NCBI GenBank assembly: GCA_963581225.1 | Contig: CAUZMW010000001.1 | Span: 3,405-67,404, forward strand | DNA from: Gammaproteobacteria bacterium | Lineage (GTDB): Bacteria > Pseudomonadota > Gammaproteobacteria > Steroidobacterales > Rariloculaceae | Reading direction: 5' to 3' | DNA length: 64,000 nucleotides | In this document: positions 3,943 to 31,762 of the stretch, piece by piece | How positions within the stretch are numbered: position 1 is the stretch's first letter | Layout: each line of letters starts with the position of its first letter | Made by a program: the position numbers and the translations under genes | The notes under the pieces: generated by a model | The model's input: only the letters and a program-made list of their open reading frames with translations | What the model was told of the DNA's origin: nothing | The model's database searches: none

Positions 3943-4020
3943 CAGCCCTTGGCCGCCTTTCGTAGAAGGCGCCTGACTCGTTGCTCTATACTCCTACATT
4001 CGATCGTCTTGAGTGAGTCC

Positions 4021-12577: not shown

Positions 12578-14128
12578 ATGACAAAACTCGAACCACGTCC
12601 CTTGGCATCCGCCTACGCGGAACGGATTCGGCACGCTCGCGTATACGACGTGGCGATCGAATCGCCGTTGGATCCGGCGCCACGACTGTCGGAACGACTA
12701 AGCAACACCATCTTGTTCAAACGCGAAGATCTGCAACCAATCTTCTCGTTCAAGCTGCGAGGAGCATTCAATAAGCTCGCGCATCTACCGAGAGAAGCGC
12801 TCCAGAGGGGCGTCATCTGTAGCTCCGCGGGTAACCACGCGCAGGGCGTTGCCTTGGCCGCGCAGCGACATGGTGTCCGTGCCGTCGTCGTGATGCCGAA
12901 GACGACGCCGTCCATAAAGATAGAGGCGGTGGAGGCGTTGGGAGGCGAGGTAATTCTCGAAGGTGACAGCTATGACGATGCGAACGCTTACGCGATTAAA
13001 CTCGCGGCCCAGCAAGATCTGACTATCGTCCATCCATTTAGCGACCCTGATGTTATCGCCGGCCAAGGCACCATCGCCGTGGAACTGCTCGAACAGTCGA
13101 ACGGCGTGCCGGACGCAGTCTTCGTGCCGATCGGCGGTGGCGGTCTCATCGCGGGAATCGGCTCTTACATCAAACATCACCATCCGGAGATAAAAATCAT
13201 CGGCGTCGAGCCCGTGGACTGCGCCAGCATGCACGAATCCTTCCGAGCCGGTGAAGTGGTGACACTCGATCACATCGGCACGTTCGCAGACGGCGCCGCC
13301 GTGAAACGTGTCAGCGAGGAGACTTTTCGCATCGCCCTCGAGGTTGTGGATCACATCGTCCTCGTCAACACGGACGAGATCTGTGCGGCGATCAAGGATG
13401 TGTTCGAAGACAGCCGGGTGATTCTGGAACCCGCTGGCGCGCTCGCCGTCGCGGGCTTAAAACGCTATGTGGAAACGGAGGGATGCCGTGATCAGACGCT
13501 CGTTACGCTGAACTGCGGCGCCAACATGAACTTCGACCGGTTGCGACATGTCTCCGAGCGCGCCGAACTTGGCGAACATCGAGAAGCACTGATCGCGGTC
13601 GAACTTCCGGAGCGTCCCGGTGCATTTCTAGATTTCTGCGGGACGATCGGGGCTCGCAATATTACCGAGTTCAATTATCGCTACGCGGCCGGAGACACGG
13701 CACGTGTCTTCGCCGGCATCGGCTTGAGCAGTGGCCGGAAGGAAGCCGAGACACTGATCAGCGCACTTGAGGCAAAAGGCTATCCGGTGCTGGACCTGAC
13801 CGATAACGAGCTCGCGAAACTCCACGTCCGGCATATGGTCGGCGGACGCGTCGCATCGCTTGAAGATGAGGTCCTGTATAGATTCGAATTTCCGGAGCGG
13901 CCGGGCGCCCTGCTGAAATTTCTCCAGGCGGTTGGGACCCGTTGGAATATCAGCCTGTTTCACTATCGCAATCACGGCTCGGATTTCGGCCGCGTCCTCG
14001 CGGGCATCCAGCTGCCTGAGGGCGACCGCGACAACTTCTCCAGCCATCTGGACGGCCTGGGCTATGCCTACTGGAACGAGACCGATAACCCTGCGTACCA
14101 GCTCTTTCTAAGCTCCGACGACGGCTAG
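12578..14128 (+). CDS. ilvA: biosynthetic threonine dehydratase (threonine ammonia-lyase)
   Basis: 516 aa. PLP site FKREDLQPIFSFKLRGAFNK, with two C-terminal ACT-like regulatory repeats typical of IlvA. Confidence 0.92.
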   Translation: MTKLEPRPLASAYAERIRHARVYDVAIESPLDPAPRLSERLSNTILFKREDLQPIFSFKLRGAFNKLAHLPREALQRGVICSSAGNHAQGVALAAQRHGVRAVVVMPKTTPSIKIEAVEALGGEVILEGDSYDDANAYAIKLAAQQDLTIVHPFSDPDVIAGQGTIAVELLEQSNGVPDAVFVPIGGGGLIAGIGSYIKHHHPEIKIIGVEPVDCASMHESFRAGEVVTLDHIGTFADGAAVKRVSEETFRIALEVVDHIVLVNTDEICAAIKDVFEDSRVILEPAGALAVAGLKRYVETEGCRDQTLVTLNCGANMNFDRLRHVSERAELGEHREALIAVELPERPGAFLDFCGTIGARNITEFNYRYAAGDTARVFAGIGLSSGRKEAETLISALEAKGYPVLDLTDNELAKLHVRHMVGGRVASLEDEVLYRFEFPERPGALLKFLQAVGTRWNISLFHYRNHGSDFGRVLAGIQLPEGDRDNFSSHLDGLGYAYWNETDNPAYQLFLSSDDG

Positions 14129-14296
14129 CCGCCTTCGGACGAGGATTCACGGGCCACGCACCAGACGAACGGCCCCTTGCTCCGATAAGACGACGGCTGT
14201 AGTCTTTTTCGGCTGCTCAAACTAGAAGACTAATTGGTCAATCAACGAAGTTGCAGCGTAACCTTCGAATAACGCCGTATCGCGGCTCAAGGGGGA

Positions 14297-15283
14297 ATGA
14301 TGTACCGACGAGAGTTTCTTAGAGACGCGAGCCTGGCGGGGCTCGCGCTGGGTGCGGGCAGCTTATCGGCCCAGACGATGGTTAACCACGCCGGTCGCAT
14401 CGACGTCCATCATCACTACTTGCCGCCATTTCTCGACGGCCCAACCTGGCCCTGGTCGATCGACTACGCACTCGATGCCATGGACAGGAATAACGTTGCG
14501 ACGTCGATTCTCTCAGGCACGACGTTTCCCGAGCCGCTGAACGACGGCACGCCGGAAGCTCGCGCACTCGCACGCCACGCCAACGACTTTATCGCGGAGG
14601 CCACCGAGCCTCATCCGGGGCGGCTCGGCTACTTCGCCGCCATACCGCTGGCCGACACCGAAGGGAGTCTGCGCGAAATCGAGTACGCGTTCGATACGCT
14701 CAACGCGGATGGCGTGACGATGAACAGCAGCGCTGGAAGAATGTGGCCCGGCGATCCGGCGCAGATGCCAATCTTCGAGGAGCTCAATCGCCGCAAGACC
14801 TCGGTTTTTATACATCCAAACACGACACCGTTTTGCTGCATGAACCCGCCGGGCGTGCCGAACAACGTCGCCGAGTTCGATAACGACGTCCTGCGTGCCG
14901 TGCTGAGCCTGCTCTGGAACGGCGTGCTGACGAATTATCCCGACATCAACTTCATCGTCGCTCATACCGGCGGCACCGTGCCGGCGCTGGCCGGCCGGAT
15001 TCAGGATCGCGTACCTGAAGATCGCGCCGATCTCTATCCCTATGGCGCGCTCGACAAGCTGCGGCGGCTCTATTTCGAGATTGGCCATGCGAGCTTTCCC
15101 TGGGTCGTCGCGGCTGCATTGGAGTTCGCGGGTCCGACGCAGTTACTATTCGGCACCGATTTTCCGGTAGAACCTTTTGCGACTACGACCCGCCATATAC
15201 CGTCGTTAGGACTTTCCCCCGATATCTTGCATGCGCTCGACCGCGGCAATGCCGAGCGCATCTTCCCCAGATACAGGACCTGA
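14297..15283 (+). CDS. amidohydrolase-2 (ACMSD/LigI/LigJ-type metal hydrolase/decarboxylase) family protein with a Tat signal
   Basis: Tat signal MMYRREFLRDASLAGLALGAGSLSAQT, then the metal motif RIDVHHHYLPP. Size and C-terminal FGTDFP are typical of the Amidohydro_2 family. Confidence 0.75.
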   Translation: MMYRREFLRDASLAGLALGAGSLSAQTMVNHAGRIDVHHHYLPPFLDGPTWPWSIDYALDAMDRNNVATSILSGTTFPEPLNDGTPEARALARHANDFIAEATEPHPGRLGYFAAIPLADTEGSLREIEYAFDTLNADGVTMNSSAGRMWPGDPAQMPIFEELNRRKTSVFIHPNTTPFCCMNPPGVPNNVAEFDNDVLRAVLSLLWNGVLTNYPDINFIVAHTGGTVPALAGRIQDRVPEDRADLYPYGALDKLRRLYFEIGHASFPWVVAAALEFAGPTQLLFGTDFPVEPFATTTRHIPSLGLSPDILHALDRGNAERIFPRYRT

Positions 15284-15287
15284 GCGT

Positions 15288-15455
15288 ATGACGACCAGTA
15301 GCAACCTCGCACACTCCGTCACGCGACTCGCACTCCTCGGCACGTTGGACGGCACGCTAACGGCCGAAGATATCGAAAAATATGAGCGCCACGCGAGCGA
15401 AAACTTAACACCGGACTGCGCGCATTGGCTCGCGATGGGCGAGAGGCGCGACTAA
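15288..15455 (+). CDS. possible small protein (55 aa) MTTSSNLAHSVTRLALLGTLDGTLTAEDIEKYERHASENLTPDCAHWLAMGERRD
   Basis: An internal ATG of track ORF 15231..15455, 4 nt after the amidohydrolase stop. Third-position GC bias is consistent with coding. No homolog recognised. Confidence 0.3.
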   Translation: MTTSSNLAHSVTRLALLGTLDGTLTAEDIEKYERHASENLTPDCAHWLAMGERRD

Positions 15456-15457
15456 GA

Positions 15458-15528
15458 GATCGCGGCCAGGGGGCCGATCCTACAGGGTCTTGCGCAGACG
15501 TTGTAGGAGCGGCCCCCTGGCCGCGATC
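15458..15528. repeat. REP family 1 inverted doublet (REPIN-like)
   Basis: GATCGCGGCCAGGGGGCCGATCCTACA (15458-15484) and its inverted partner TGTAGGAGCGGCCCCCTGGCCGCGATC (15502-15528). Confidence 0.85.
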
Positions 15529-15536
15529 ATCGGCAA

Positions 15537-16565
15537 CTATTCGATCGGCGTCACGAGCGTACCGATCCCCTCGACCTCTATCTCGACTGTATCGCCCGGC
15601 CTCAAAAACACCTGCGGCGTACGCCCGTTACCGACGCCCGACGGCGTGCCGGTCGCGATGACATCTCCGGGCCAAAGCGTCATCGTCCTGGTCGCGAAGC
15701 GCAACACGCGTTCGACGTCGTGAATCAGGTATGACGTGTCGGAGTCTTGCATGATCTCGCCGTTAACTCGCGTCGTTACCCGGACGTTGCCGTAGTTCGG
15801 CATGAATTCGAGCGGCACGATGTAGGGTCCCATCGGCGCGGAGTCGTCCATGCTCTTGCCTGCGTACCAGTCGCGCGCATAACGGCCGTCTATCGGTATC
15901 TGCGCCGCACGGTCACTGATGTCATACAGAATCGTGAATCCGAACACATAGTCCATCGCGTTCTCGAGTGTCAGACCTTTTGCCTCGCGGCCGATCACGA
16001 TGGAGAACTCGCCTTCCCAGTCAACGGTGTCGCGTCCCGGTGGAATCACGTAAGGCTGCCCGGGATCGATGATCGCCGAACGCGGCGATTTCGCGAACAG
16101 GAACGGGTCGTCTTCGTCCGGATCGATATCCGACGAGCCGCCCATTTCCTCCGCGTGCGCTCGATAGTTCTGTCCGGCCGCGAGTAGATTCCATGGGTAT
16201 TTGATCGGCGCCTTGATCGAGACATCATCCGGCTCGTAACCGAAACTGAGGTCCGCTGCGCGACCCGACAAGTAGTTGGCGATCTGGAACAGCCTGGGCT
16301 TCGTCGTAGCCGACTGCTCGATTAACGCCTTCATGTCGGTCGGCAGACCGACCGATGGAACACCGGCCTCCGCCACGAGATAGGCGTTGGCCTGCTGTAT
16401 ATCGAAGAGCCGATCGTCGATCAGGATGCCGACGCGTTCCGGGCCGGCGGTCGCGAATGTCGCCAGTTTGAAGCTAGCGTCGGGGGCAGCGGAGACCTGG
16501 GCCTGGGAAGCAGTCGCCATCAGGCTCAGTACGGTTAACAGACTCGCCACGAATTGGGTGTTCAT
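15537..16565 (-). CDS. fumarylacetoacetate hydrolase (FAH) family protein with an N-terminal signal peptide
   Basis: Signal peptide MNTQFVASLLTVLSLMATASQAQV. C-terminal FAH motifs include DWEGEFSIVIG and GDVIATGTPSGVGNGRTPQVFLRPGDTVEIEVEGIG. Confidence 0.8.
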   Translation of the reverse strand: MNTQFVASLLTVLSLMATASQAQVSAAPDASFKLATFATAGPERVGILIDDRLFDIQQANAYLVAEAGVPSVGLPTDMKALIEQSATTKPRLFQIANYLSGRAADLSFGYEPDDVSIKAPIKYPWNLLAAGQNYRAHAEEMGGSSDIDPDEDDPFLFAKSPRSAIIDPGQPYVIPPGRDTVDWEGEFSIVIGREAKGLTLENAMDYVFGFTILYDISDRAAQIPIDGRYARDWYAGKSMDDSAPMGPYIVPLEFMPNYGNVRVTTRVNGEIMQDSDTSYLIHDVERVLRFATRTMTLWPGDVIATGTPSGVGNGRTPQVFLRPGDTVEIEVEGIGTLVTPIE

Positions 16566-16751: not shown

Positions 16752-17675
16752 ATGACGGATTACCTGACAATGAACCGGCGCGAAGCGCTCGCGATGCTCT
16801 CGGCCATGGGCGTTGCTGGACTCGCGCCCTCTCACGCGCTTGCTCAACAACAGATGCCGCTACGCACAGTACCGAGCACCGGCGAGATGCTGCCGGTCGT
16901 CGGCCTCGGCTCGAGTAAGGTCGTCTCGCAGATCGTGGACAACGGCACGGAGCCCGTCGCGGCCGTGCTGCGGGCATTAGTGGCCAACGGCGGGACCGTG
17001 GTCGACTCCTGGCCGCGCAACCCTGCGAACGACATCGGCTTCGGGGAGGTCATTAATCTGCCAGGCCTGCGCGACAGCCTCTTCGTCACGACCAAGATCG
17101 ACCAGGTCGGCAAAGAAGCCGGCATCGCTCAGTTCCGGCAGACCCAAGAACTCTATCAACGCGAAACGATCGACCTCGTGCAGATCTTCAGCCTCACGGA
17201 TCTAGAGACGCAATGGCCGAACCTCAAAGACTGGAAAGATGAAGGGAGCGCGCGCTATATCGGCGTGACGGTGTCGAACTACGAGCGCTATGACCAACTG
17301 ATCGAGTTTCTCGGCCGCGAAACACCGGATTTCGTACAGATGAATTATTCGATCACGGAGCGGCGTGCCGAAGAACGCTTGTTGCCGATGGCCGCCGATA
17401 TGGGGCTCGCGGTGCTCCTCAATCGGCCGTTCATGAACGGCGCCTACTTCGGCCGGCTGGAAGGCCGGACGCTTCCCGAATGGGCCGCCGAGTTCGATTG
17501 CACGAGCTGGGCGCAGTTCTCTTTGAAATATATTCTCGCGCACCCAACGATCACCACCGTGTTTACGGAAACGAGCAACCCGACGCACATGGAAGAGAAC
17601 GCACAGGCCTCGTATGGCCGCATGCCCGACGCAGCCGCCCGCGCCAGAATGAGAGCACTGATAGACGAGGTCTAA
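16752..17675 (+). CDS. aldo/keto reductase family protein with a Tat-type signal
   Basis: N-terminus MTDYLTMNRREALAMLSAMGVAGLAPSHALAQQ, followed by an AKR-like body (VDSWPRNP..., IGVTVSNY..., FVQMNYSITERRAEERLLP). Confidence 0.7.
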   Translation: MTDYLTMNRREALAMLSAMGVAGLAPSHALAQQQMPLRTVPSTGEMLPVVGLGSSKVVSQIVDNGTEPVAAVLRALVANGGTVVDSWPRNPANDIGFGEVINLPGLRDSLFVTTKIDQVGKEAGIAQFRQTQELYQRETIDLVQIFSLTDLETQWPNLKDWKDEGSARYIGVTVSNYERYDQLIEFLGRETPDFVQMNYSITERRAEERLLPMAADMGLAVLLNRPFMNGAYFGRLEGRTLPEWAAEFDCTSWAQFSLKYILAHPTITTVFTETSNPTHMEENAQASYGRMPDAAARARMRALIDEV

Positions 17676-17768
17676 CTTCTACGCATAACAGTAAAGCGCT
17701 GGTTTCTGCGGCGATTACAACTGTACCCCGGAGAAATCCAATCGCTAGAGCCAGGACGTGGCAGCGTC

Positions 17769-18359
17769 TTACGGTGCCAGCAACGGAATGCTCTCAACAG
17801 CCGGTGGTTGCGGCCGCACCTGCAGGAACGCATGAATATCAGCGAGATCCTGATCCGACATCACCAGTTCAGTGTACGGTGGCATGCTGCCGCTCGGATT
17901 GCGCACATACCAAGTAAAACGAGCGAGCGTCAGCGGATCGGGGCCGACTCGCGGCCCCTGCGCCCCTCCCTGCCCCTCGTTCGCATGACATTGGTAGCAG
18001 CCCGTTTGCCGGTACAGCATGGCACCCGTCGCCACACGCCCAGGCGGCTCAGCCGCACCGGACACGGGCGCAAGGTAAGCATGCATGTCCGTCAGCCGCT
18101 CATCTAAGACAGTCTCTGCGGTGTAGGCCGGCATGGTGCCCGTCGGGCGCCGAACGTAATCGATGAACTCGGCGAGCGAGAGCCCGCCCGTGGCAATGTT
18201 CGGTCCGAGTGCGGTACCGCGGCCCTCGTCACCGTGGCAGACCCCGCAACCCAACGCGGTATAGACGTCGCCGGCGTCCTGGGCGACGGCATCCGAGGAC
18301 GCGATCAGGGCGAGAGCAGCCATCCTGAAGGCTGCTGCACGCAGAGTCAGCGTAGTCAT
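17769..18359 (-). CDS. dihaem c-type cytochrome (periplasmic)
   Basis: Two CxxCH motifs (CGVCHGDEG and CYQCHANEG). Start moved to Met71 of the track ORF (18359), giving the signal peptide MTTLTLRAAAFRMAALALIASSDAVAQD and a GAGGTG SD. It begins 10 nt after the TPP-enzyme stop. Confidence 0.85.
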   Translation of the reverse strand: MTTLTLRAAAFRMAALALIASSDAVAQDAGDVYTALGCGVCHGDEGRGTALGPNIATGGLSLAEFIDYVRRPTGTMPAYTAETVLDERLTDMHAYLAPVSGAAEPPGRVATGAMLYRQTGCYQCHANEGQGGAQGPRVGPDPLTLARFTWYVRNPSGSMPPYTELVMSDQDLADIHAFLQVRPQPPAVESIPLLAP

Positions 18360-18369
18360 CTTCGCCACC

Positions 18370-20355
18370 TCAACGTACCTGTGTGACGACATCGACGAGT
18401 GCCGGCTCGCCACGCTTGACGACTTCGATCGCGCGACGCAACGCCGGACCGAGATCTGCCGGATTGTCGATCGGACCTTCAGTATATACACCCAGGCCTT
18501 CGACCATCTTGGCGTAATCGATATTCGGATCGGTAAGTTGGCTGCCGATCTCGCCGCGATCGATGCCACGGTTGCGAGCGTTGCACATGCGCTGAACGTG
18601 CATGACTTCCATGTGGTAGGCGCGGTTGTTATTCATGACGCTTAACAACGGGATGCGGTGATGCGCCGCGGTCCAGAGCACACCGGGTGCGTACATGAGG
18701 TCGCCGTCAGTCTGAATCGCCACGGAAAAGCGGCCGTGTTTACGATTGGCGAGCGCGCCGCCAACCGAGGCTGGGGCACCGTAGCCGATACCGCCGCCTC
18801 CCGCGTGCCCGAGCCACTGATAGGACTTGTCGAAGTCCCAGAGCCGCCGCGGCCAGCCGCCGCCATCGCTATAGTAGCTAGACACGAGTGACCAGTCCTC
18901 GTCCTTGATCTGCGCCCAGAGTTCCGCGCAGAGTCGCGCCGTGCTGACGGGGCTCGCATCCCAGCCGTAACTCGCGGCCTTGCGCGACTCCTCGTCCGCG
19001 ACACGACTCGCCGCCGCGAGCCGCTCGCCGCGCTCCTCGAACGCACGTCGGCGCGCCCTGGTCGTGAGGCGGTTTACGGCCTCGATCAGCGATGGCAACG
19101 TGGCCTCGCCGTCCGCGGCGATCGCGAGATCGACCTCCTGCATGCGGCGGAAATCCTGGTAGTTCGAACGGATATAGAGATCGCCCGTGGTGATGGAAAT
19201 GAGCTTCGCGTCGGACTTCGCAATCCGGCTGATAGAACGGTGCACCTGATCCCGGAGCACATTGACCGTTGACCAGAAATCCATGACTTCTAACCCTAAG
19301 ATCACATCGGCCTGGGGAATGACCACGCGATTCATCGGCGGTGGACCGTTCGAATAGAGGTGAGTCTGATTCAGCGGATGACGCGTGGGGAAATTGAGGC
19401 GACTACCCCGGTCGATCACGGCCGCCTGCAAAGTCTCGGCAAGCTCCACGAGCAAGGTCATTCCCCGCGGCGTGCGCGCGAGACGATCGGCCACCAGTAC
19501 CGGATACTCGGCATCGACGAGCATGCGCGCCGTTTCTTCGACCGCGCCAGACTCGCCCTGAGGCGGCACGGGAATCGTGAGCCGGGGAATGTGCAGCCCC
19601 GCATCGCGTGCGATAGGCCCTTCCTGTAGATGACCGTCGAGTACGAGCACCACCGGCGCCATCGGCGGCGTCATCGCTACCTTGTAGGCGCGAACCGCCG
19701 ACTCGGCGAAATGCCCGAGCGACCGCGGCGTATCGTCCCACTTGGTGTAGTCGCGAACCATGTCGGCCGCATCCTGCACGCCGTGATACCACTCCGCGGA
19801 CCTGCGCAGTGCGGCATCGCTGTGATTGCCGAGGATTACGTACACCGGCACGCGGTCGCACCAGGCGTTGTAGATCGCCATGGCGGCGTGTTGTAGGCCG
19901 ACCGTGCCGTGCGCCATGATCGCAAGCGGTTTTCCTTCCGCCTTGAAGTAGCCGTGAGCCATGGCGACTGACGATTCCTCGTGGCAGCAGGTGATGAGTT
20001 CGGGACACTCGTTTCCGCCGTAGTTGATGATCGACTCATGGAGGCCGCGAAAACTCGAGCCCGGATTCGCACAGATGTAATCAAAATCCAGCGACTTGAT
20101 CACGTCGACCATGAAATCGGAGCCGCTGCGCTCATCGGCACCGATCACCTGCACGCTTGCCGGTGACATCGCCTCGGCCTCGGCCGTCATGATCGGTGTG
20201 GTAATGGATTGCTCCGCCGCCTCGGCACCGGCCTGAGCTTGCGCGTCGCTAACCCTCGCCGGTCCGATCAATGCAGCTGCGCCCGCAAGGGTTCCCTGCT
20301 TGAGGAATTGCCGGCGTTCGACGGACGCCTCGTTCGAATCACGGGACTGGTTCAT
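18370..20355 (-). CDS. thiamine-diphosphate-dependent enzyme (acetolactate synthase/PoxB/Xsc superfamily) with a Tat signal
   Basis: Tat signal VERRQFLKQGTLAGAAALIGPARVSDAQAQA. The PYR domain carries the catalytic Glu (CCHEESSVAMAHGY). The PP domain carries the ThDP motif GGGGIGYGAPASVGG...QTDGDLMY...MNNNRAYH. An AGGAG SD precedes the ATG. Confidence 0.8.
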   Translation of the reverse strand: MNQSRDSNEASVERRQFLKQGTLAGAAALIGPARVSDAQAQAGAEAAEQSITTPIMTAEAEAMSPASVQVIGADERSGSDFMVDVIKSLDFDYICANPGSSFRGLHESIINYGGNECPELITCCHEESSVAMAHGYFKAEGKPLAIMAHGTVGLQHAAMAIYNAWCDRVPVYVILGNHSDAALRRSAEWYHGVQDAADMVRDYTKWDDTPRSLGHFAESAVRAYKVAMTPPMAPVVLVLDGHLQEGPIARDAGLHIPRLTIPVPPQGESGAVEETARMLVDAEYPVLVADRLARTPRGMTLLVELAETLQAAVIDRGSRLNFPTRHPLNQTHLYSNGPPPMNRVVIPQADVILGLEVMDFWSTVNVLRDQVHRSISRIAKSDAKLISITTGDLYIRSNYQDFRRMQEVDLAIAADGEATLPSLIEAVNRLTTRARRRAFEERGERLAAASRVADEESRKAASYGWDASPVSTARLCAELWAQIKDEDWSLVSSYYSDGGGWPRRLWDFDKSYQWLGHAGGGGIGYGAPASVGGALANRKHGRFSVAIQTDGDLMYAPGVLWTAAHHRIPLLSVMNNNRAYHMEVMHVQRMCNARNRGIDRGEIGSQLTDPNIDYAKMVEGLGVYTEGPIDNPADLGPALRRAIEVVKRGEPALVDVVTQVR

Positions 20356-20510: not shown

Positions 20511-21827
20511 GTGTTAGATAAACACGCGACACAGAATTGGGAAGACATGGAACCGTCGGCGGCGAACGGGTTGTTCGACCGTCGTGCTTTTTTCAAAGGT
20601 GGCGCGACCTTCGCCGCCACCATGGCAGGTTACACGCTAAGCGATTCCGCGGGCGCCCAGCAGCTGATCGACGACCCCTGGAGCGCCGCACCGGGCACGC
20701 CGACCGGCCCCTACGAGTCACCGTCCCGGTTCGAGAGCGGCGTCGTGCGCACGATGACCAATCCCAACGGTGAGCCGCGGGGCCAGCAGTCACGTACGCC
20801 GCATCACCTGCTCGACGGCTCGTTCACACCAAACGGCCTGCACATGGTCATCTCGCGTTCCGGCGCGCCCGACATCGACCCGGAACAGCACCGCCTCGTC
20901 ATCCACGGCTTGGCGCGGCAGCCGCTGACGTTCACGCTCGACGCGCTCGCACGCTACCCCATGGTGTCGCGTATGGCGTTCGTTGAATGCGGCGGTAACA
21001 GCGCGCCGCTGTGGTCGCCGGAACCGCTCGACGTGGGCGTGCAGCAGCTCCATGGGCTCGTCTCCTGTGCTGAGTGGACCGGCGTCATGCTCTCCACGCT
21101 GCTCGAGGAGACCGGCATTGACCCGAGCGCGAAGTGGCTCATCGCCGAAGGCTCGGACGCACTGACACCGCACCGCAGCGTACCGATCGCCAAGGCGCTG
21201 GACGATGCCATGATTGCTCTCTACCAGAACGGCGAACGCATCATGCCGGGCAACGGTTACCCGATGCGCCTTCTGCTGCCGGGCTGGGAAGGCAACATGC
21301 AGGTCAAATGGCTGCGTCGTATCGAGCTTGTGGATCAGCCGGCCATGAGCATCTACGAGGCGCGAACCTACACGCAGCTTCTGCCTGGCGGTAAAGCCTA
21401 CCGTTTCCACTTTCTCCAAGAAGTGAAATCGTTCATCACCCGCCCCTCACCTGGTGTGGGTCTAAACGAACCGGGCTTCTATGAGATCTCGGGTGTTGCC
21501 TATTCCGCCACCGGACGGATCTCGAAGGTCATGGTCTCGGCCGACGGCGGTCAGACTTGGGCGGAGGCCGCACTGGATGGGCCCGTGCTACCGAAGGCGT
21601 TCACCCGCTTCCGGGCGCCGTGGCGCTGGGACGGTGGTCCCGCCGTACTGCAGAGCCGCGCATGGGACGAGTCCGGCAACTTCCAACCAACCCGAGAGCA
21701 AATCGTCGCCGTCCGCGGCGAGGCGACACGCGTACCGAACCCGAATGCGTTCCCGAACCAGCACTACAACGGACCGACGAGCTGGGCCGTCGACACCGAC
21801 GGCGAGGTGAAACATGTTTACGCGTAA
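20511..21827 (+). CDS. sulfite-oxidase-family molybdoenzyme (SorA/SoxC-like sulfite dehydrogenase catalytic subunit), Tat-exported
   Basis: Tat signal FDRRAFFKGGATFAATMAG. Mo-ligand Cys context FVECGGNSA. Approximately 430 aa, as in SoxC. The gene uses a GTG start with a GAGGGAGAGGA SD, and ATG 20547 is an alternative start. Confidence 0.8.
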   Translation: MLDKHATQNWEDMEPSAANGLFDRRAFFKGGATFAATMAGYTLSDSAGAQQLIDDPWSAAPGTPTGPYESPSRFESGVVRTMTNPNGEPRGQQSRTPHHLLDGSFTPNGLHMVISRSGAPDIDPEQHRLVIHGLARQPLTFTLDALARYPMVSRMAFVECGGNSAPLWSPEPLDVGVQQLHGLVSCAEWTGVMLSTLLEETGIDPSAKWLIAEGSDALTPHRSVPIAKALDDAMIALYQNGERIMPGNGYPMRLLLPGWEGNMQVKWLRRIELVDQPAMSIYEARTYTQLLPGGKAYRFHFLQEVKSFITRPSPGVGLNEPGFYEISGVAYSATGRISKVMVSADGGQTWAEAALDGPVLPKAFTRFRAPWRWDGGPAVLQSRAWDESGNFQPTREQIVAVRGEATRVPNPNAFPNQHYNGPTSWAVDTDGEVKHVYA

Positions 21828-22350
21828 GCGTCGATGCGCTGTCGCTCTCGTCGCTTTTGCGCTGAGTTCGAGTTATGCCCTAGCCCAGACGCCACATCTC
21901 GGTACGCCAATTTCCGCGGCAGACATCGCGGCATGGGATATCGACATCCTGCCCGACGGCACGGGACTGCCACCAGGCAGCGGCACGGCAACGCAGGGCG
22001 CGCCAATCTACGCGGTTAAATGCGCGCTCTGTCATGGCGTGAACGGCGAGGGCGGCATCAGCCTTGCGCTTATCGGCGGTGAACCGCTCACGAACGGTAT
22101 CGACACGGGCAAGACCATCGGCAACTTCTTGCAATACGCCACTACTATTTTCGACTACACGCGCCGGGCGATGCCGTGGCTGACGCCGCGCACACTCAGT
22201 GACGACGAAGTCTATGCACTGACGGCTCATCTGCTAGAGATCAACGACATCATCAGCGCTGACGACGTCATGAACGCCGAGACGCTGCCCGCCGTGCAGA
22301 TGCCGAACCGTGACGGTTTTATCGACCGGTTCCCGGAGCTGATGCCATAG
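21814..22350 (+). CDS. monohaem cytochrome c subunit (SorB/SoxD-like)
   Basis: Signal peptide MFTRKRRCAVALVAFALSSSYALAQ. A single CALCHGVNGEG motif. A 14-nt overlap with the molybdoenzyme gene. Confidence 0.8.
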   Translation: MFTRKRRCAVALVAFALSSSYALAQTPHLGTPISAADIAAWDIDILPDGTGLPPGSGTATQGAPIYAVKCALCHGVNGEGGISLALIGGEPLTNGIDTGKTIGNFLQYATTIFDYTRRAMPWLTPRTLSDDEVYALTAHLLEINDIISADDVMNAETLPAVQMPNRDGFIDRFPELMP

Positions 22351-22362: not shown

Positions 22363-23850
22363 TTGTCTTTTAATCAAGCTAATGTCGTCATCGTCGGCGG
22401 TGGCAACGCGGCCTTGTGTGCAGCGCTGGCAGCCCAGGAGAGCGGCGCTAGCGTCACCGTGCTCGAACGAGCGCCCGAGGATGAGAGCGGCGGCAACACG
22501 CGTTTCACTGCAGGTTCCATTCGTTTCGCCTATTCGGGTGTCGAGGATTTGCGCGAACTCATGCCCGATCTGCCCGAGAACGAGATCGCGGCGACCGACT
22601 TCGGCACCTACACGGAGGATCAGTACTTTGACGACATGTTTCGCGTCACGCAGTACCGCTGCGATCCAGACCTCGTCGAGTGCCTCGTGCGCCAATCCAA
22701 GGAGACAATGTTCTGGATGCGTGACAAGGGCGTCAGATTCATTCCGATTTACGGTCGTCAGGCGTTTAAGATCGACGGACGATTCAAGTTTTGGGGCGGG
22801 CTGACGGTCGAGTCGGTCGGCGGCGGGCCAGGTCTCGTCGACAGCCTGACAAAAGTCTGCCTGAGCCACGGCATCGAGATTCAGTACGACACGCGAGCCG
22901 TCGATCTCGATACCGACGGCAAGCGCGTCACAGGCGTGGTCGCCCGCCGCGGCGGCGAGCGTCCCGAAACAATTCCCGCCCGCGCCGTCGTGCTCGCCTC
23001 GGGCGGATTCGAAGCCAACCCGGAGTGGCGCACCCGCTATCTCGGGCCCGGTTGGGAGATCGCGAAAGTGCGTGGCACGCGTTTCAATACCGGCGACGGT
23101 ATCAGCATGGCGCTGGCTCATGGCGCGGCATCCTACGGCAACTGGTCCGGTTGTCACGCGGTCGGCTGGGATCGCAACGCGCCCGAGTTCGGTGATCTCG
23201 CCGTCGGCGATCAGTTCCAGAAACACTCTTACCCGTTCGGTATCATGGTGAACGCAAACGGACATCGTTTTGTGGACGAGGGCGCCGACTTTCGCAACTA
23301 CACCTACGCGAAATACGGCACCGAAATAATGAAGCAACCGGGCCACTTCGCCTGGCAGCTCTTCGACGCGAAAACCGCGCATCTGCTGCGCGATGAATAC
23401 CGAATCCGCCAGATCACGAAAGTCACGGCGAACTCGTTGGAGGAACTGGTTACCAAGCTTGACGACGTCGATGCAGAAGCCTGCCTTGCCGAGATAAAGG
23501 CTTACAACTCCGCCGTCAGAGACGACATTCACTTCGATCCCAACATCCAGGACGGCCGCTGCACGGAGGGGCTCGCGATCGACAAGAGCAACTGGGCCAA
23601 CGCGCTCGATGAGCCGCCGTTCGAAGGCTACGCCGTGACCTGCGGTATCACATTCACGTTCGGCGGCTTGCGCGTCAACACCGACGCGCAGGTTCTCGAC
23701 TCCGACCTGCGCTCGATTCCGGGTCTATACGCGGCCGGCGAGCTCGTTGGCGGACTCTTCTACAACAACTATCCTGGCGGCACCGGCCTGATGTCCGGCG
23801 CCGTCTTCGGCAAGATTGCCGGCACATCCGCGGCGCGAGAGAACGCGTGA
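22363..23850 (+). CDS. FAD-dependent dehydrogenase, TcuA (tricarballylate dehydrogenase)/fumarate-reductase-flavoprotein-like
   Basis: N-terminal dinucleotide fold VVIVGGGNAALCAALAAQESGASVTVLERAPEDESGGNTRFTAG. C-terminal GLYAAGELVGGLFYNNYPGGTGL. TTG start with a GGAGAA SD. Confidence 0.75.
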   Translation: MSFNQANVVIVGGGNAALCAALAAQESGASVTVLERAPEDESGGNTRFTAGSIRFAYSGVEDLRELMPDLPENEIAATDFGTYTEDQYFDDMFRVTQYRCDPDLVECLVRQSKETMFWMRDKGVRFIPIYGRQAFKIDGRFKFWGGLTVESVGGGPGLVDSLTKVCLSHGIEIQYDTRAVDLDTDGKRVTGVVARRGGERPETIPARAVVLASGGFEANPEWRTRYLGPGWEIAKVRGTRFNTGDGISMALAHGAASYGNWSGCHAVGWDRNAPEFGDLAVGDQFQKHSYPFGIMVNANGHRFVDEGADFRNYTYAKYGTEIMKQPGHFAWQLFDAKTAHLLRDEYRIRQITKVTANSLEELVTKLDDVDAEACLAEIKAYNSAVRDDIHFDPNIQDGRCTEGLAIDKSNWANALDEPPFEGYAVTCGITFTFGGLRVNTDAQVLDSDLRSIPGLYAAGELVGGLFYNNYPGGTGLMSGAVFGKIAGTSAARENA

Positions 23851-24944
23851 ACACGATAGACCGCAGACGCTTTCTATCATCCGTCTCGTTCGGCCTGGGC
23901 GCTCTCGCGATTGGCGGGTCCCGCGCGCAGAGCGTCGATTTTTCCGGTCAACTCATCGAGATCATTATTCCGTTCAAGGAGGGTGGCGGCTCCGACACCT
24001 GGGGACGATTCAACGCGCCGTTTCTATCCCGCTACCTGCCCGGTCAACCGACCGTCATCGTGAGAAACGTTCCGGGCGGCAACTCCATCGCGGGTGCTAA
24101 CCGCTTCGCTGCACGCGCGCACCCCGACGGCCTCTCGGTGCTCGGCACGTCGGCATCAACACAGTTTCCGTATCTGATGGAGGATCCCCGCGTCGACTAC
24201 GACTATCGCGACTGGCGTGTGCTCTGGGCTTACGGCACCGGCGGTGTTGTGTACGTCTCCGCGGATCTCGGAATCTCGAGCGCGGCTGAGCTCGGCGCCA
24301 TCACGGATCGGGAACTTCTCTACGGCAGCCAGGGCCCGACCTCGCTCGATCTGGTTCCGGTCCTGGGGTTTAAGTTGCTGGGATTGAACGTCAGACCAAT
24401 ATTCGGCATGAGCGGCCGCGGCGCGGGACGGCTTGCATTCGAGCGCGGCGAGCTCAACCTCGACTATCAAACCTCCACGGCTTACCTGCGAAATGTCGTG
24501 CCGTTGATCGAGCAGGGAGATGCCGTGCCACTCTTTTCCTGGGGTGCGCTCGACAATGCCGGTAGGCTCGTTCGCGACCCGACATTTCCGAATCTACCGC
24601 ACTATGGAGAAGTCTACGAACTGATTCATGGGACGCCGCCCGGCGGGCTGCCCTGGGATGCCTGGTTCTCATTCTTCACGGCCGGATTCCCGGCGCAAAA
24701 GCTGATGGTCGTTCCGAGGGAGACACCCGACGCGATCGTGGTCGCTTACGAAGACGCCGTGCAGTCGATGAAACTGGATCCCGACTACCGCGCCAGAAAA
24801 CCCGCCGCGCTCGGCGCTTACGAGCAGGTCACGGGCAGCGCGGCGCAGACCATTTATGAACTCGCAACTGATGTGCCGCGAAGCGCCCGTGACTGGGTCA
24901 GAACCTGGCTCAGAGATGAGTTCCGGGTCAACCTCGAGGCTTAA
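23847..24944 (+). CDS. tctC: tripartite tricarboxylate transporter (TTT) substrate-binding protein, TctC/Bug family, Tat-type signal
   Basis: Signal IDRRRFLSSVSFGLGALAIGGSRAQS, then IIIPFKEGGGSDTWGR...VRNVPGGNSIAG...PDG, typical of Bug/TctC. The GTG start overlaps the upstream stop. Confidence 0.75.
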   Translation: MNTIDRRRFLSSVSFGLGALAIGGSRAQSVDFSGQLIEIIIPFKEGGGSDTWGRFNAPFLSRYLPGQPTVIVRNVPGGNSIAGANRFAARAHPDGLSVLGTSASTQFPYLMEDPRVDYDYRDWRVLWAYGTGGVVYVSADLGISSAAELGAITDRELLYGSQGPTSLDLVPVLGFKLLGLNVRPIFGMSGRGAGRLAFERGELNLDYQTSTAYLRNVVPLIEQGDAVPLFSWGALDNAGRLVRDPTFPNLPHYGEVYELIHGTPPGGLPWDAWFSFFTAGFPAQKLMVVPRETPDAIVVAYEDAVQSMKLDPDYRARKPAALGAYEQVTGSAAQTIYELATDVPRSARDWVRTWLRDEFRVNLEA

Positions 24945-24946
24945 GC

Positions 24947-26923
24947 GTGACTGAGGCGCTCTTAAGCGCGCTCGCGAACTTCGCAACGCTCCAGCATTTG
25001 TCGTACCTGGGTCTTGGCGTGACGTTGGGGCTTGCCATCGGCGCCTTTCCCGGACTCGGGGGCATTGCCGGGCTATCGATCATGATGCCGTTTCTCTACG
25101 GCATGGATACGCTATCGGCCCTAGCTATGCTCGTGGGCCTCGTCGCCGTGATACCGACGTCGGACACGTTCACCTCCGTACTCATGGGCATTCCCGGCTC
25201 GAGTGCGAGCCAGGCCACCGTGCTCGACGGCTTTCCTCTGGCACAGCAGGGCCAAGCGGCTCGCGCCCTCTCTGCAGCGTTCTCAGCATCGCTCGTCGGC
25301 GGTCTTGTGGGCGCCGTCATTCTCACGTTTTTCGTCCAGATCGCGCGACCGCTCATACTCGCGTTCGGCTCGGCCGAGCTGTTTATGCTGGCATTACTCG
25401 GACTCTCTATGGTCGGCGTGCTGTCCGGCACAAGTCTCGTCAAGGGGCTCGCGGCCTGCGGCTTGGGCCTGATCGTCGGCTCCATCGGCAGCGCACCCGC
25501 CACGGGCGAGTTCCGGATGACGTTCGGCATCGACTATCTCTACGACGGCTTACCGCTCGTGGTCGTCGGGATCGGACTCTTCGCCTTTCCCGAGATCACG
25601 GATCTGCTGCGACGGAATCGCTCGATCGCCGCCGGCGGCGTGCAGTCTGGCCAGTGGCTGGACGGAATTCGAGACATGCTGCGGCATAAGCTGTTGGTAC
25701 TTCGTTGCGCCGGTATCGGCACGGTGATCGGTGCTATCCCCGGGCTGGGCGGTACCGTCGTGGATTGGATCGCCTACGGGCACGTCGTTCAAACCGCGAA
25801 AGATAAATCCCTCTTCGGCAAAGGCGATATTCGCGGCGTATTGGCGCCCGAGTCCGCCAACAATGCGAAGGAAGGCGGTGGTCTGGTGCCTACTTTGTTG
25901 TTCGGTATCCCGGGTTCGGGCGCGATGGCTGTCTTTCTCGGCGGCATGGTCTTGCTGGGTATCGAAGCGGGCCCTGCGATGGTGTCGACCGATCTCGATC
26001 TCACCTATACGATCATCTGGTCGCTCGCCCTCGCGAACGTGCTGGGCGCCGGCAGTTGCTTGTTATTGGCCCGGCCGATCAGCCGCTTGACCACGATCCC
26101 GTTCAATCTGGTCGCCCCATTCATGATCATGGTCGTCAACTTCGCCGCGTTCCAGGCGACACGAAATTTCATGGACCTGGTGGCGTTATTCGCGATCGGC
26201 GTGTTGGGCGTACTGCTGAAGCGCTTCGGCTGGTCACGGCCTGCGTTTCTGATCGGCTTCGTATTGGCGCCTCAAGCCGAGGGCTATCTAAATCTGGCCG
26301 TGCAGTTCTACGGCTGGGGTATGCTTGCCCGACCCGGCGTGCTGATAATACTCGCCATCATTCTGGTCTCTGTCTGGCTCGGGTTCCGTGATCGTCAGAG
26401 TGGCACCCAGCTGATTGGTCACGGCTCCGATGGTCCCGCGAGCGACGCTCCGGTACTCACACGCGGGCCGCAGCTAATATTTCTCGGCGGCTCCAGCGCC
26501 GTTCTCCTCTACTCGATCTGGAGTAGTCTCGATCTGTCGCCGTTGGGCAGCATGTTCCCACTCAGCGTCTCGATGGTGACATTGGGATTGTGCCTGTATC
26601 TGCTGGGCGCGCTGATATTCGGTCCCGTAGAGAACCGCGCCAACGTCGACCTTGAATATGGCGTCCAGTACAACGAGGAGACCGAAAAGAGCGGAGTGTG
26701 GGTCAATGTCGCCTGGTTCGCTGCGCTGATCGGCGCGACGGCACTATTCGGTTTCATACTCGGGACCTTGTGCTTCTTCGTCACATTCCTCAGGCTCAAG
26801 GCGCAGATCGACTGGAAGAGGGTGATGGTTCTCTCGACATCCGCGCTTATCGTACTCGTCGTGCTCACGAACACGCTGCTCGTGGAGTTGCCGGAGAGTC
26901 TTATTTTATCTTACGTACGCTAG
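24947..26923 (+). CDS. tctA: TTT transporter large permease TctA fused to a TctB-like C-terminal 4-TM module
   Basis: TctA-like N-terminus (GAFPGLGGIAGLSIMMPFLY...GIPGSSASQATVLDGFPLAQQG). At 658 aa it is about 150 aa longer than standard TctA. The extra C-terminal part is a block of hydrophobic helices. Confidence 0.75.
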   Translation: MTEALLSALANFATLQHLSYLGLGVTLGLAIGAFPGLGGIAGLSIMMPFLYGMDTLSALAMLVGLVAVIPTSDTFTSVLMGIPGSSASQATVLDGFPLAQQGQAARALSAAFSASLVGGLVGAVILTFFVQIARPLILAFGSAELFMLALLGLSMVGVLSGTSLVKGLAACGLGLIVGSIGSAPATGEFRMTFGIDYLYDGLPLVVVGIGLFAFPEITDLLRRNRSIAAGGVQSGQWLDGIRDMLRHKLLVLRCAGIGTVIGAIPGLGGTVVDWIAYGHVVQTAKDKSLFGKGDIRGVLAPESANNAKEGGGLVPTLLFGIPGSGAMAVFLGGMVLLGIEAGPAMVSTDLDLTYTIIWSLALANVLGAGSCLLLARPISRLTTIPFNLVAPFMIMVVNFAAFQATRNFMDLVALFAIGVLGVLLKRFGWSRPAFLIGFVLAPQAEGYLNLAVQFYGWGMLARPGVLIILAIILVSVWLGFRDRQSGTQLIGHGSDGPASDAPVLTRGPQLIFLGGSSAVLLYSIWSSLDLSPLGSMFPLSVSMVTLGLCLYLLGALIFGPVENRANVDLEYGVQYNEETEKSGVWVNVAWFAALIGATALFGFILGTLCFFVTFLRLKAQIDWKRVMVLSTSALIVLVVLTNTLLVELPESLILSYVR

Positions 26924-28065: not shown

Positions 28066-28881
28066 CTAGACCGGATCGACGCCGGCGCGAAGACAATAGT
28101 ACTCCCAGACTCGGTCCAGGGCGAGCGGCGAGAGTTGGGCGACGGTTGACTGTTCGATCTCGTCGTCAGTCAGATACGTGGGATCGCCCAGTCTGAGCGC
28201 CTCCGAAAGTAGCTGCGCGTTCACCTGCAGATACACCGACGTCACGACAGCCTGCTGCACGGTGGGCGTCGCTACCACGGCGCCATGGCCGCGCATGAGC
28301 AAGCAGGTGTTGTCGCCGAGCGTGTCGGCCAGGTTATGGCCCATCTCCATGGTCCGCACGAGCATGTCCGTATCGCCGTATTCGTTCTGAATGTCCCATA
28401 CCGGGATTTCGGCACCGATGATCGAGGCCGAGTGCGCAATGGGCCGCAGCGGCACAGTCGAGACACTGAACGGCACGACGGCGTAGGAGTGGTGGTGGAC
28501 GACGGCCCCGACGTCGGGGCGTGACTCGTAGATCGCGCCGTGGATCATACGTTCGCCGTACGGCCGCCTCGTATCGTTCGGATCGACACGATCGCCGTTG
28601 CTGTGAAACTCCATGAGGTCCGAGAGTTCGACGAACTCGGGGCTGAGTGAGCGTGACATGACGTAACGACCCGGATCTCGCGGATCGCGAACGCTGACGT
28701 GACCGAACCCGTCCACGACTGCCTCGTTTGACAAGATCCGATTCGCCGCCACGACGCGCCGAAATTCGACGAGGTCATCGACAGCGGGCTGCGCGCGGAG
28801 CGATTGCAGAGGCGCTGCTGCGCCGACCGCTGCCAGGGCCAGTGATCGTTCGAGAAGCTCGCGTCGAGTCAGTGTTTTCAT
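28066..28881 (-). CDS. class II aldolase/adducin family protein with a Tat signal
   Basis: Tat signal MKTLTRRELLERSLALAAVGAAAPLQSLRAQP. Metal-binding His cluster GAVVHHHSYAVVPFS and MRGHGAVV. Confidence 0.75.
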   Translation of the reverse strand: MKTLTRRELLERSLALAAVGAAAPLQSLRAQPAVDDLVEFRRVVAANRILSNEAVVDGFGHVSVRDPRDPGRYVMSRSLSPEFVELSDLMEFHSNGDRVDPNDTRRPYGERMIHGAIYESRPDVGAVVHHHSYAVVPFSVSTVPLRPIAHSASIIGAEIPVWDIQNEYGDTDMLVRTMEMGHNLADTLGDNTCLLMRGHGAVVATPTVQQAVVTSVYLQVNAQLLSEALRLGDPTYLTDDEIEQSTVAQLSPLALDRVWEYYCLRAGVDPV

Positions 28882-31315: not shown

Positions 31316-31762
31316 GCCGTAGCTCCTCCAGCAATCCAAACCTCAATGTGCCCTGAGCAGCATAGTCCTGGAAGCTCAGCGAGTAAATTACCGTTTCGCG
31401 GTGCGGTTACTACCATAAGGTCGTATTCGTTCTGTTGGCAGTAGGCTTACCCGTGGCGATCATTCTTGCCTGACCCCTCGATCCTACGCCTGACAGCGTG
31501 GTCCGCGCGCACCGATAGTGCGCCAATAGGTGGCAACGAGCCCAAGATAACACCGCTGTCAAAATCACCCGCCACAACCGCAACAAACCCGGAAATTCTG
31601 AAAACTTCGTCGCCGCCCCGCCACTGAATAACCTAAGCTCCCACAACGCGAGGACACCAAGCGACTTGAGGCGCAGGCTGCCCCTATATTTTTATTTAAA
31701 TATCGGCCATTTAGCCACCAAACTCGGTAATATCCCACGCTACAGTTTTTGGGGGGAGGAAT

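Follow-up and report, generated by a model that had tools for sequence, protein, structure and literature searches.

A Tat-signal thiamine diphosphate enzyme encoded beside a c-type cytochrome: a candidate periplasmic carbonyl:cytochrome c oxidoreductase module

Why should a thiamine diphosphate (ThDP) enzyme carry a twin-arginine translocation (Tat) signal and be encoded directly ahead of a cytochrome c? The question is raised by two genes in a stretch of 64,000 nucleotides from a Gammaproteobacteria bacterium of the family Rariloculaceae (GenBank assembly GCA_963581225.1, contig CAUZMW010000001.1, positions 3,405 to 67,404), which is called the window here. ThDP enzymes of the superfamily in question are textbook cytoplasmic proteins, and the known oxidative ones need either flavin adenine dinucleotide (FAD), as in PoxB and POX, or iron-sulfur (Fe-S) clusters and coenzyme A (CoA), as in pyruvate:ferredoxin oxidoreductase (PFOR). 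A preliminary description of the window had suggested that the pair encodes a periplasmic oxidoreductase acting between a 2-oxoacid, or a related carbonyl compound, and cytochrome c. Comparative genomics lends support to this proposal, with the predicted Tat signal and the cytochrome gene conserved together, and the pair is best explained, at a probability of about 0.6, as a ThDP-dependent carbonyl:cytochrome c oxidoreductase of the periplasm with a 2-oxoacid or an aldehyde as its substrate. The pair is made up as follows:

18370..20355, (-) strand: gene for a ThDP-dependent enzyme, predicted to be Tat-exported (661-residue precursor; open reading frame translation, Pfam and an AlphaFold2 model)
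17769..18359, (-) strand: gene for a dihaem class I cytochrome c, predicted to be soluble and periplasmic (196 residues, two Cytochrome_CBB3 domains)
18360..18369, (-) strand: intergenic spacer of 10 nt, GGTGGCGAAG, as read in the sequence

The ThDP gene starts at the ATG at 20353-20355, the first start codon past an in-frame stop, with an AGGAG 8 nt before it, and it ends with the TGA at 18370-18372. A Shine-Dalgarno-like GAGGTGG overlaps this stop codon, giving the geometry of translational coupling, and the ATG of the cytochrome follows at 18357-18359; the 10-nt gap and the separate Shine-Dalgarno sequence of the preliminary description were thus both confirmed. The list of open reading frames (ORFs) runs the cytochrome frame back to a GTG at 18569, within the ThDP gene, but the ATG at 18359 is taken as the start because of the signal peptide and of where homologues begin. 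Scanning 17600-20600 for promoters and terminators found nothing.

The export signal of the enzyme is described by two features:

20230..20355, (-) strand: twin-arginine signal peptide, residues 1-40/42, SVERRQFLKQGTLAGAAALIGPARVSDAQAQA, with a putative cleavage site after AQA
20299..20319, (-) strand: Tat consensus motif ERRQFLK, residues 13-19 (sequence and conservation)

The precursor begins with MNQSRDSNEASVERRQFLKQGTLAGAAALIGPARVSDAQAQA and has the layout SVERRQFLK-QGTLAGAAALIGPA-RVSDAQAQA, in which the motif (compare the consensus S/T-R-R-x-F-L-K), the moderately hydrophobic h-region and the AxA site all fit Tat substrates. Relatives came from a protein search of a database (at least 8000 relatives) and from a scan at one genome per species (at least 581 relatives), the best 80 loci of which were analysed, all of them from metagenome-assembled genomes (MAGs); together with 8 further loci these give 88 relatives that are 44-100% identical to the window protein. 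RRxF[LI]K with an Ala-rich h-region is found at the protein level in 80/80 genome relatives and in 8/8 further loci, and all three elements of the signal (RR motif, h-region, AxA site) persist in 88/88, down to 44% identity. Across the alignment of this Tat clade conservation is at least 90% at R14, R15, F17 and L18, and a Pfam TAT_signal match is precomputed on some of its members. The strong twin-arginine signal that had been described for the window protein is therefore a conserved property of its relatives, and the concern that the true start might lie downstream of the RR motif does not hold, as the motif is conserved as protein. These features suggest that the ThDP enzyme is exported folded via Tat. 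According to a sceptical reading the signal would be non-functional, because the start is wrong or the protein cytoplasmic, and the gene adjacency would be incidental. It can point to an internal methionine, M56, that could in principle be a start, but it has to set aside the 88/88 conservation and the precomputed TAT_signal matches, the AGGAG 8 nt ahead of the ATG, and a cytochrome adjacency that is about 24-fold over background; as such it deserves hardly any weight.

The partner cytochrome has a Sec-type signal peptide, MTTLTLRAAAFRMAALALIASSDAVA, with cleavage ahead of QD, and two haem sites found by a CxxCH search:

18234..18248, (-) strand: haem site CGVCH
17985..17999, (-) strand: haem site CYQCH

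Each site is followed by G(T/S)MP(A/P)Y, and the protein thus combines the export signal, CxxCH and distal Met of class I cytochromes; the signal peptide and the two CxxCH sites are as first described. Co-conservation of this gene, on which the preliminary description had made its proposal depend, was borne out by the survey. Within 1 kb downstream of the ThDP gene a same-strand CxxCH frame is present in 65 of the 80 MAG loci (48 with one haem site and 17 with two), a convergent CxxCH frame is adjacent in 6 more, and the cytochrome is found in 8/8 further loci, six of them cultured strains, so that a c-type cytochrome gene is adjacent in 79/88 loci overall. Elsewhere in the same loci a CxxCH frame occurs in 19 of 557 one-kb windows, or 3.4% per kb, which places the adjacency about 24-fold over background. 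All-against-all clustering of the ORFs of the 80 loci returned the cytochrome as the sole neighbour shared across the set (69 loci; also by tblastn), while the next commonest neighbour family reached 9/80. The gap between the two genes is short in homologues too, for example 8 nt in Caballeronia, 7 nt in Burkholderia cenocepacia, 11 nt in Rhodoplanes and 2 and 10 nt in MAGs, with a range of 7-68 nt in cultured carriers.

The ThDP-cytochrome pair is a widespread two-gene module and is not peculiar to one genome. The MAG loci belong to Acidobacteriota (Vicinamibacterales, Terriglobia, Bryobacterales), Gammaproteobacteria, one Rhodospirillaceae, Verrucomicrobiia and Dormibacterota, and the 88 relatives as a whole span Acidobacteriota, Gamma-, Beta- and Alphaproteobacteria, Verrucomicrobiia and Dormibacterota; these are mostly soil and sediment bacteria, and the family is concentrated in Acidobacteriota. 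Cultured, genetically tractable carriers exist in Burkholderia, Paraburkholderia, Caballeronia, Novosphingobium and Rhodoplanes, namely Burkholderia sp. SFA1, B. cenocepacia GCA_018146755.1, Paraburkholderia acidicola, Novosphingobium sp. KACC 22771, Rhodoplanes sp. Z2-YC6860 and Caballeronia zhejiangensis, whose plasmid p3 carries the two genes annotated as 'thiamine pyrophosphate-binding protein' (WP_244808613) and 'c-type cytochrome' (WP_244808614). The ThDP proteins of MAGs from Vicinamibacterales and other Acidobacteria (L005, L007, L009-L017) are 69-78% identical to the gammaproteobacterial window protein, which is far above what vertical descent would lead one to expect across phyla, so that the module seems to have been transferred horizontally. 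Single acidobacterial MAGs can also hold two diverged Tat-ThDP copies on separate contigs, each with a cytochrome (L012/L036, L028/L047 and L034/L035), suggesting paralogues of more than one specificity or substrate.

The boundary of the clade is sharp and coincides with the signal. A HMMER search of representatives at 50% identity gave 1047 clusters at E ≤ 1e-30, in which all full-length representatives of at least about 45% identity have the Tat motif and all those at or below 42% are without a signal peptide. The nearest relative of the Tat clade is a sister clade of 'thiamine pyrophosphate-binding proteins' at 34-42% identity, with members such as Phyllobacterium WP_262291239, Terrarubrum WP_342364039 and Salipiger WP_076694631, and it is collinear with the window protein over the whole catalytic core. 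Seven sister loci were read, from plasmids or chromids of Sinorhizobium, Cupriavidus, Phyllobacterium, Terrarubrum and Salipiger, and a CxxCH frame within 1.5 kb of the sister-clade gene was found in 0/7 of them. The genes of Terrarubrum and Salipiger (2 of 3 annotated loci) instead have NAD-dependent aldehyde dehydrogenase genes on their flanks, and one of these two loci also has an alpha-hydroxy-acid oxidase in the vicinity; the Phyllobacterium gene stands beside an NAD(P)-dependent oxidoreductase and TctABC genes; short-chain dehydrogenases/reductases are also among the NAD(P)-dependent neighbours. Decarboxylase plus NAD-dependent aldehyde dehydrogenase is the classical layout of non-oxidative 2-oxoacid decarboxylases, as in the mandelate pathway, and the sister clade has the look of plain decarboxylases whose products go to aldehyde dehydrogenases. 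The argument turns mainly on this contrast: the cytoplasmic enzyme is found with NAD-using partners, whereas the enzyme with the Tat signal is found with a cytochrome c.

Such an exchange of partners has a physiological logic. The periplasm holds no NAD(P) or CoA, and a c-type cytochrome is therefore the usual electron acceptor there, as in SorAB, SoxCD and p-cresol methylhydroxylase. Like the module, SorAB, SoxCD, p-cresol methylhydroxylase PchFC and NicA2-CycN consist of a cofactor enzyme exported by Tat or Sec beside a small class I cytochrome c as acceptor, and the window cytochrome weakly resembles PchC (E 1.8e-4); in these systems, however, the cofactor is a molybdenum-pterin or a flavin and in none is it ThDP. 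The module is best described as joining two known kinds of system, the ThDP oxidoreductases and the periplasmic dehydrogenase-cytochrome c pairs. A precedent for the export of a cytoplasmic-type enzyme by Tat with a tightly bound cofactor is provided by the glucose-fructose oxidoreductase (GFOR) of Zymomonas with its NADP, which differs in fold and cofactor and has no cytochrome partner.

How the enzyme might deliver electrons to a haem depends on what kind of ThDP protein it is, for which the following features are needed:

19804..20127, (-) strand: PYR (N-terminal ThDP) domain, containing E126, S100 and H149 (Pfam; alignment)
19978..19980, (-) strand: catalytic Glu E126, invariant, aligning with PoxB E50 and E47 of benzoylformate decarboxylase (BFD)
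19096..19542, (-) strand: middle domain, without the FAD/ADP-binding glycine loop (weak Pfam TPP_enzyme_M; segment comparison)
18388..18855, (-) strand: PP (C-terminal ThDP) domain (Pfam; alignment)
18625..18711, (-) strand: Mg/diphosphate motif TDGD...NNN with D550 and N577 (alignment; D550...N576-N577 invariant, TDG in place of GDG)
18607..18609, (-) strand, in the PP domain: E583 of the clade-specific H581-x-E583-x-M585 helix (conservation analysis)

Membership of the superfamily, which had been proposed from motifs, is well founded. The translation holds ELITCCHEESSVAMAHGY and GGGGIGYG...QTDGDLMY...VMNNNRAYH, the string CCHEESSVAMAHGY quoted in the preliminary description is likewise present in the 661-residue ORF, and all three Pfam domains match: TPP_enzyme_N at residues 77-184 (66.6 bits), TPP_enzyme_C at 501-656 (76.6 bits) and TPP_enzyme_M at 272-420, the last with 32.7 bits being barely over its cut-off of 30.4. 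The protein was aligned with E. coli PoxB, IlvI, Gcl and Oxc (from the MG1655 record) and with Pseudomonas putida BFD, whose sequence was verified in part against the alignment from the search of solved structures; S100 and H149 align with BFD Ser26 and His70. Among proteins of solved structure, those nearest in sequence are the BFD-like enzyme 4q9d of Mycobacterium (E 4e-26), BFD of P. putida and benzaldehyde lyase (BAL), with an identity of only about 20-25%. An AlphaFold2 (AF2) model built on a 54-sequence alignment reaching down to 42% identity had a predicted local distance difference test score (pLDDT) of 81 and a predicted template-modelling score of 0.81; a shallower alignment (29 sequences, at least 76% identical) gave a model of pLDDT 53 that was not used. 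Foldseek matched the AF2 model to Gcl, 4q9d, BFD, BAL, 2-hydroxyacyl-CoA lyase (HACL) and acetohydroxyacid synthase (AHAS), with probability 1.00 and identity of about 20%.

Among these, BFD (MdlC), the BFD-like enzymes (1bfd, 4q9d) and BAL match best in sequence, at E 4e-26 to 1e-18 in the comparison with solved structures. The BFD-like enzymes share the three-domain fold at a template-modelling score of about 0.65-0.85, have the equivalents of the catalytic Glu, Ser26 and His70 conserved and are also without the FAD/ADP glycine loop. However, the position of BFD His281 is taken by F360/W361 (Trp/Phe) in the window protein, which does not qualify as an MdlC. BFD itself acts in the cytoplasm without oxidising its substrate and has an NAD-dependent benzaldehyde dehydrogenase as its partner, whereas the partner of the window enzyme is a cytochrome. 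No curated NCBIfam model reaches its cut-off with the window ThDP protein: the best, PRK08327 ('thiamine pyrophosphate-requiring protein'), scores 226.5 bits against 456, the second best, the BFD (MdlC) model PRK07092, 145.2 bits against 493, and other representatives of the Tat and sister clades score 209-289 bits with PRK08327, also below 456. A full-text literature search for a Tat-exported ThDP family or a cytochrome-linked, flavin-free ThDP enzyme found nothing, and the Tat-ThDP family appears to be without a characterised member, in agreement with the preliminary description, which knew of no characterised periplasmic member of the superfamily that donates electrons to cytochrome c. Two findings from the literature were considered and set aside: for the scytonemin enzyme ScyA the predicted site of action is the cytoplasmic side, and mutants of Gluconacetobacter in indole-3-acetic acid (IAA) map to cytochrome c biogenesis and to a Tat L-amino-acid oxidase, with no ThDP enzyme among them.

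The most familiar way for a ThDP enzyme to feed a respiratory chain is that of PoxB, and the pair could be imagined as a PoxB/POX-type flavoenzyme in which electrons from hydroxyethyl-ThDP reach cytochrome c by way of FAD in the middle domain. The enzyme would then be a periplasmic pyruvate:cytochrome c oxidoreductase. The three-domain architecture is the same, the top Foldseek matches include the FAD-containing Gcl and AHAS, and PoxB is a known ThDP enzyme of this respiratory kind. The middle domain, however, does not look like that of a flavoenzyme. FAD segments were compared as those common to E. coli PoxB, IlvI and Gcl in a computed alignment, with the numbers of the PoxB FAD-contact residues presumably being those of the UniProt annotation. 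The glycine loop (CGSGC in PoxB, VGGGA in IlvI, AGGGV in Gcl) is replaced by ADR, with VADRLA standing at PoxB CGSGC; the GMxGxxG segment of the flavoenzymes is deleted; and neither the RF(DD)R segment (RFDDR in AHAS), which reads LEVMDFW, nor the IDI segment, which reads SITTG, is conserved. Furthermore, the protein reaches 63.3 bits with the pyruvate oxidase model PRK08611, whose cut-off is 742, BFD-type enzymes outscore every flavoenzyme, and the protein ends at the core (…VVTQVR), whereas PoxB runs about 40 residues further, so that there is no C-terminal membrane peptide. A flavoenzyme of the PoxB type is thus improbable, and of the kinship with PoxB that had been proposed earlier the common superfamily stands while a PoxB-like cofactor content does not, the nearest relatives being flavin-free BFD-type decarboxylases. 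Since the FAD segments are absent and the 54-sequence alignment holds no invariant Cys and no conserved Fe-S motif, the ThDP enzyme is probably free of flavin and Fe-S clusters. PoxB and the pyruvate oxidase of Lactobacillus nevertheless remain functional analogues of the proposal, being ThDP enzymes that carry out oxidative decarboxylation of a 2-oxoacid to an acid; PoxB does so with FAD at the cytoplasmic face of the membrane, held by its C-terminal peptide, and reduces ubiquinone, whereas the Tat family is without FAD segments and peptide and is predicted to be exported.

What sets the Tat clade apart from its cytoplasmic sister lies next to the cofactor. R184, W189, H191, K205 and R596 are invariant in both clades alike. 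H581, E583, M585 and Q588, by contrast, reach at least 95% conservation in the Tat clade but at most 7% in the sister clade, which has Tyr, Asp and Glu at the positions of H581, E583 and M585, respectively. These four residues lie in the helix right after the ThDP NN motif, which in other family members faces the C2 atom of ThDP, and their clustering is consistent with an altered fate of the enamine intermediate. The H581-x-E583-x-M585-x-x-Q588 stretch, encoded at 18592..18615, forms with the invariant H565 and H566 a patch rich in His, Met and Glu next to ThDP. This patch could serve to relay electrons or might even bind a metal.

A mechanism that would fit these features begins in the cytoplasm, where the enzyme would bind ThDP and Mg and dimerise, because the ThDP sites of the superfamily lie at the dimer interface. 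The folded enzyme would then be exported by Tat, as its conserved signal suggests, and in the periplasm ThDP would add either to a 2-oxoacid, which would then lose CO2, or to an aldehyde without this step, in either case giving the enamine (Breslow) intermediate. In cytoplasmic relatives this enamine is protonated and the aldehyde that is set free passes to an NAD-dependent aldehyde dehydrogenase, whereas here it would be oxidised in two one-electron steps. The electrons would pass to the co-encoded, Sec-exported cytochrome c and presumably on to a terminal oxidase, and the acyl-ThDP would be hydrolysed to the carboxylic acid. As a flavin is most likely absent, transfer from ThDP to haem would be direct or via protein side chains. 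ThDP enamines are readily oxidised by one-electron acceptors, as is seen with the Fe-S clusters of PFOR and with ferricyanide in assays of transketolase and pyruvate decarboxylase (PDC). PFOR and its 2-oxoacid relatives (OFOR) show that a neighbouring metal centre can take electrons from the enamine one at a time and without a flavin, but they have an unrelated domain organisation, contain Fe-S clusters, depend on CoA and are cytoplasmic. A more specific version can be put forward tentatively, in which the pair is a flavin- and Fe-S-free periplasmic respiratory dehydrogenase whose Breslow intermediate is oxidised by haem c, directly or via H581/E583/M585, and which would let soil and sediment bacteria, most of all Acidobacteriota, respire with electrons taken from 2-oxoacids or aldehydes outside the cell, with no need for import.

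Several points weigh against an oxidoreductase. For every member of the family export, cofactor content and cytochrome reduction stand as predictions, the lack of FAD among them being read from the sequence, and we know of no flavin-free ThDP enzyme that reduces a cytochrome. E583 aligns with the position of the catalytic Glu of PDC, which is linked to enamine protonation in non-oxidative decarboxylases. Moreover, 9 of the 80 MAG loci have no adjacent cytochrome, one of them with only 121 bases of downstream sequence, and in one of the nine (L048) the cytochrome's place is taken by the gene for a Tat-signal subunit of a molybdenum enzyme of the aldehyde oxidase/xanthine dehydrogenase family (3387..6008, directly downstream), an aldehyde oxidoreductase that would suit a decarboxylase releasing an aldehyde. 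Such points would be explained if the enzyme were a periplasmic non-oxidative ThDP decarboxylase, lyase or carboligase that releases an aldehyde or acyloin, with the cytochrome serving another periplasmic dehydrogenase whose gene lies elsewhere (a molybdenum or PQQ aldehyde dehydrogenase) or acting as a general carrier. The closest characterised relatives, BFD and BAL, are indeed non-oxidative, the sister clade resembles plain decarboxylases feeding aldehyde dehydrogenases, and the window itself has a molybdenum hydroxylase gene (28910..31339) 8.5 kb off. Yet a cytochrome that serves another enzyme would be expected beside the gene of that enzyme, and the 80 loci show no further gene that is conserved along with the pair; the cytochrome gene mostly begins within about 10 nt, and it stays adjacent across very different genomic contexts and phyla. 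The non-oxidative alternative is therefore held to be unlikely.

Two further loci without a cytochrome (L065 and L079) have a large protein of the TonB-dependent-receptor type, judged so from its sequence, directly upstream (2396..5869 and 2329..5892, respectively), and their ThDP proteins are diverged, with an altered W501…W506 region.

The genes around the pair bear on another proposal, that of a Xsc-like desulfonation in which sulfite would be released in the periplasm from a sulfonated carbonyl compound and oxidised by the divergent SoxCD. The preliminary description had raised it as pure inference from the divergent sulfite dehydrogenase gene, and that gene is indeed there: 20511..21827 (+) encodes a SoxC-type sulfite dehydrogenase above the cut-off of TIGR04555 (494.6 against 420 bits) and is followed by a SoxD-like cytochrome c at 21814..22350 (+). 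The arrangement does not travel with the module, however. Of the 80 loci only one, that of the syntenic relative L002, shares with the window an adjacent SoxCD, and of the eight additional Tat-clade loci inspected for neighbours none has a sulfite dehydrogenase beside the pair. The Xsc models give 80.2 bits against 676.4 (TIGR03457) and 90.3 against 620 (PRK07525), and the chemistry needs phosphate, yields acetyl phosphate and is redox-neutral, which would leave a dedicated cytochrome unexplained. Desulfonation is accordingly very improbable. There are no other sox genes near the SoxC-SoxD-like pair (20511..22350, (+)) in the examined part of the window, and this pair is probably an independent sulfite:cytochrome c dehydrogenase that is not conserved with the ThDP module.

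If a periplasmic carbonyl:cytochrome c oxidoreductase is the true identity of the pair, it would be a new combination of cofactor and acceptor in ThDP enzymology and a new entry point to aerobic respiratory chains, and a flavin-free direct route from ThDP to haem, should it hold, would define a new enzyme class. The abundance of the module in Acidobacteriota, whose physiology is poorly known, means that it may matter for the turnover of organic acids and aldehydes in soil. A ThDP enzyme coupled to an electrode-friendly cytochrome would be of interest to biocatalysis as well.

As to the substrate, no conserved neighbour beyond the cytochrome names one in the 80 loci, and the recurrent minor neighbours are too sparse or lineage-bound. 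Caballeronia and Paraburkholderia have genes of aromatic catabolism near the pair (Rieske dioxygenase, UbiD, CoA ligase, FAH hydrolase and glyoxalase), Burkholderiaceae have a porin and major facilitator superfamily (MFS) transporters, B. cenocepacia has an actP-like DUF485-SSF permease, and TonB-dependent receptors lie near the module in two loci. FAH-family hydrolases, Amidohydro_2 proteins and aldo/keto reductases (AKRs) recur as minor neighbours. A gene for a LysR regulator adjoins the pair in B. cenocepacia, where it lies upstream on the same strand, and in Caballeronia, where it lies downstream on the opposite strand. It may be speculated that the substrate is pyruvate, glyoxylate, 2-ketogluconate, an aromatic 2-oxoacid, 4-carboxy-4-hydroxy-2-oxoadipate (which would give citrate) or an aromatic aldehyde.

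TcuA/TcuB genes with Tct or MHS-MFS transporters are present at about 10 loci, from several acidobacterial lineages and the window. The TcuA-like FAD_binding_2 proteins near the module (window 22363..26923, (+); L009, L010, L013-L017, L021 and L041) come from different lineages and are only 34-38% identical. The window gene occurs with TctC and a 658-residue TctA-family protein, and elsewhere the TcuA-like protein is found with TctA, an MHS-MFS transporter or a protein with a TcuB-like N-terminus (CNACRYCEQ.CP…, by reading the sequence). Chance may account for this association; alternatively, the product or substrate may be of the tricarboxylate type.

Members of normally cytoplasmic families with export signals are also found in the window. 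These are an Amidohydro_2 protein at 14297..15283 (+), beginning MMYRREFLRD…, an aldo/keto reductase at 16752..17675 (+), beginning MNRREALAML…, and, at 15537..16565 (-) and 28066..28881 (-), a FAH-family hydrolase with a Sec-type signal and a class II aldolase with the Tat signal MKTLTRRELLER…, respectively. The molybdenum hydroxylase large subunit (Ald_Xan_dh_C, MoCoBD_1 and MoCoBD_2) at 28910..31339, on the (-) strand, adjoins the Tat-signal class II aldolase. A Tat-signal Amidohydro_2 protein and a Tat-signal AKR occur again in L083, at 13798..15863, right after the ThDP-cytochrome pair. The set of Amidohydro_2, AKR, aldolase and FAH proteins with export signals hints at a larger periplasmic catabolic pathway in the lineage of the window, and an exported AKR raises the question of how a nicotinamide cofactor would be supplied.

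Lastly, secreted beta-propellers of NHL repeats adjoin the module in at least 7 loci, among them L012 (2184..3380), L013 (8374..9471) and 5 further ones; the NHL-repeat gene of L013 is directly downstream of the cytochrome, and L083 has NHL-repeat genes at 5269..6537 and 18026..19258.

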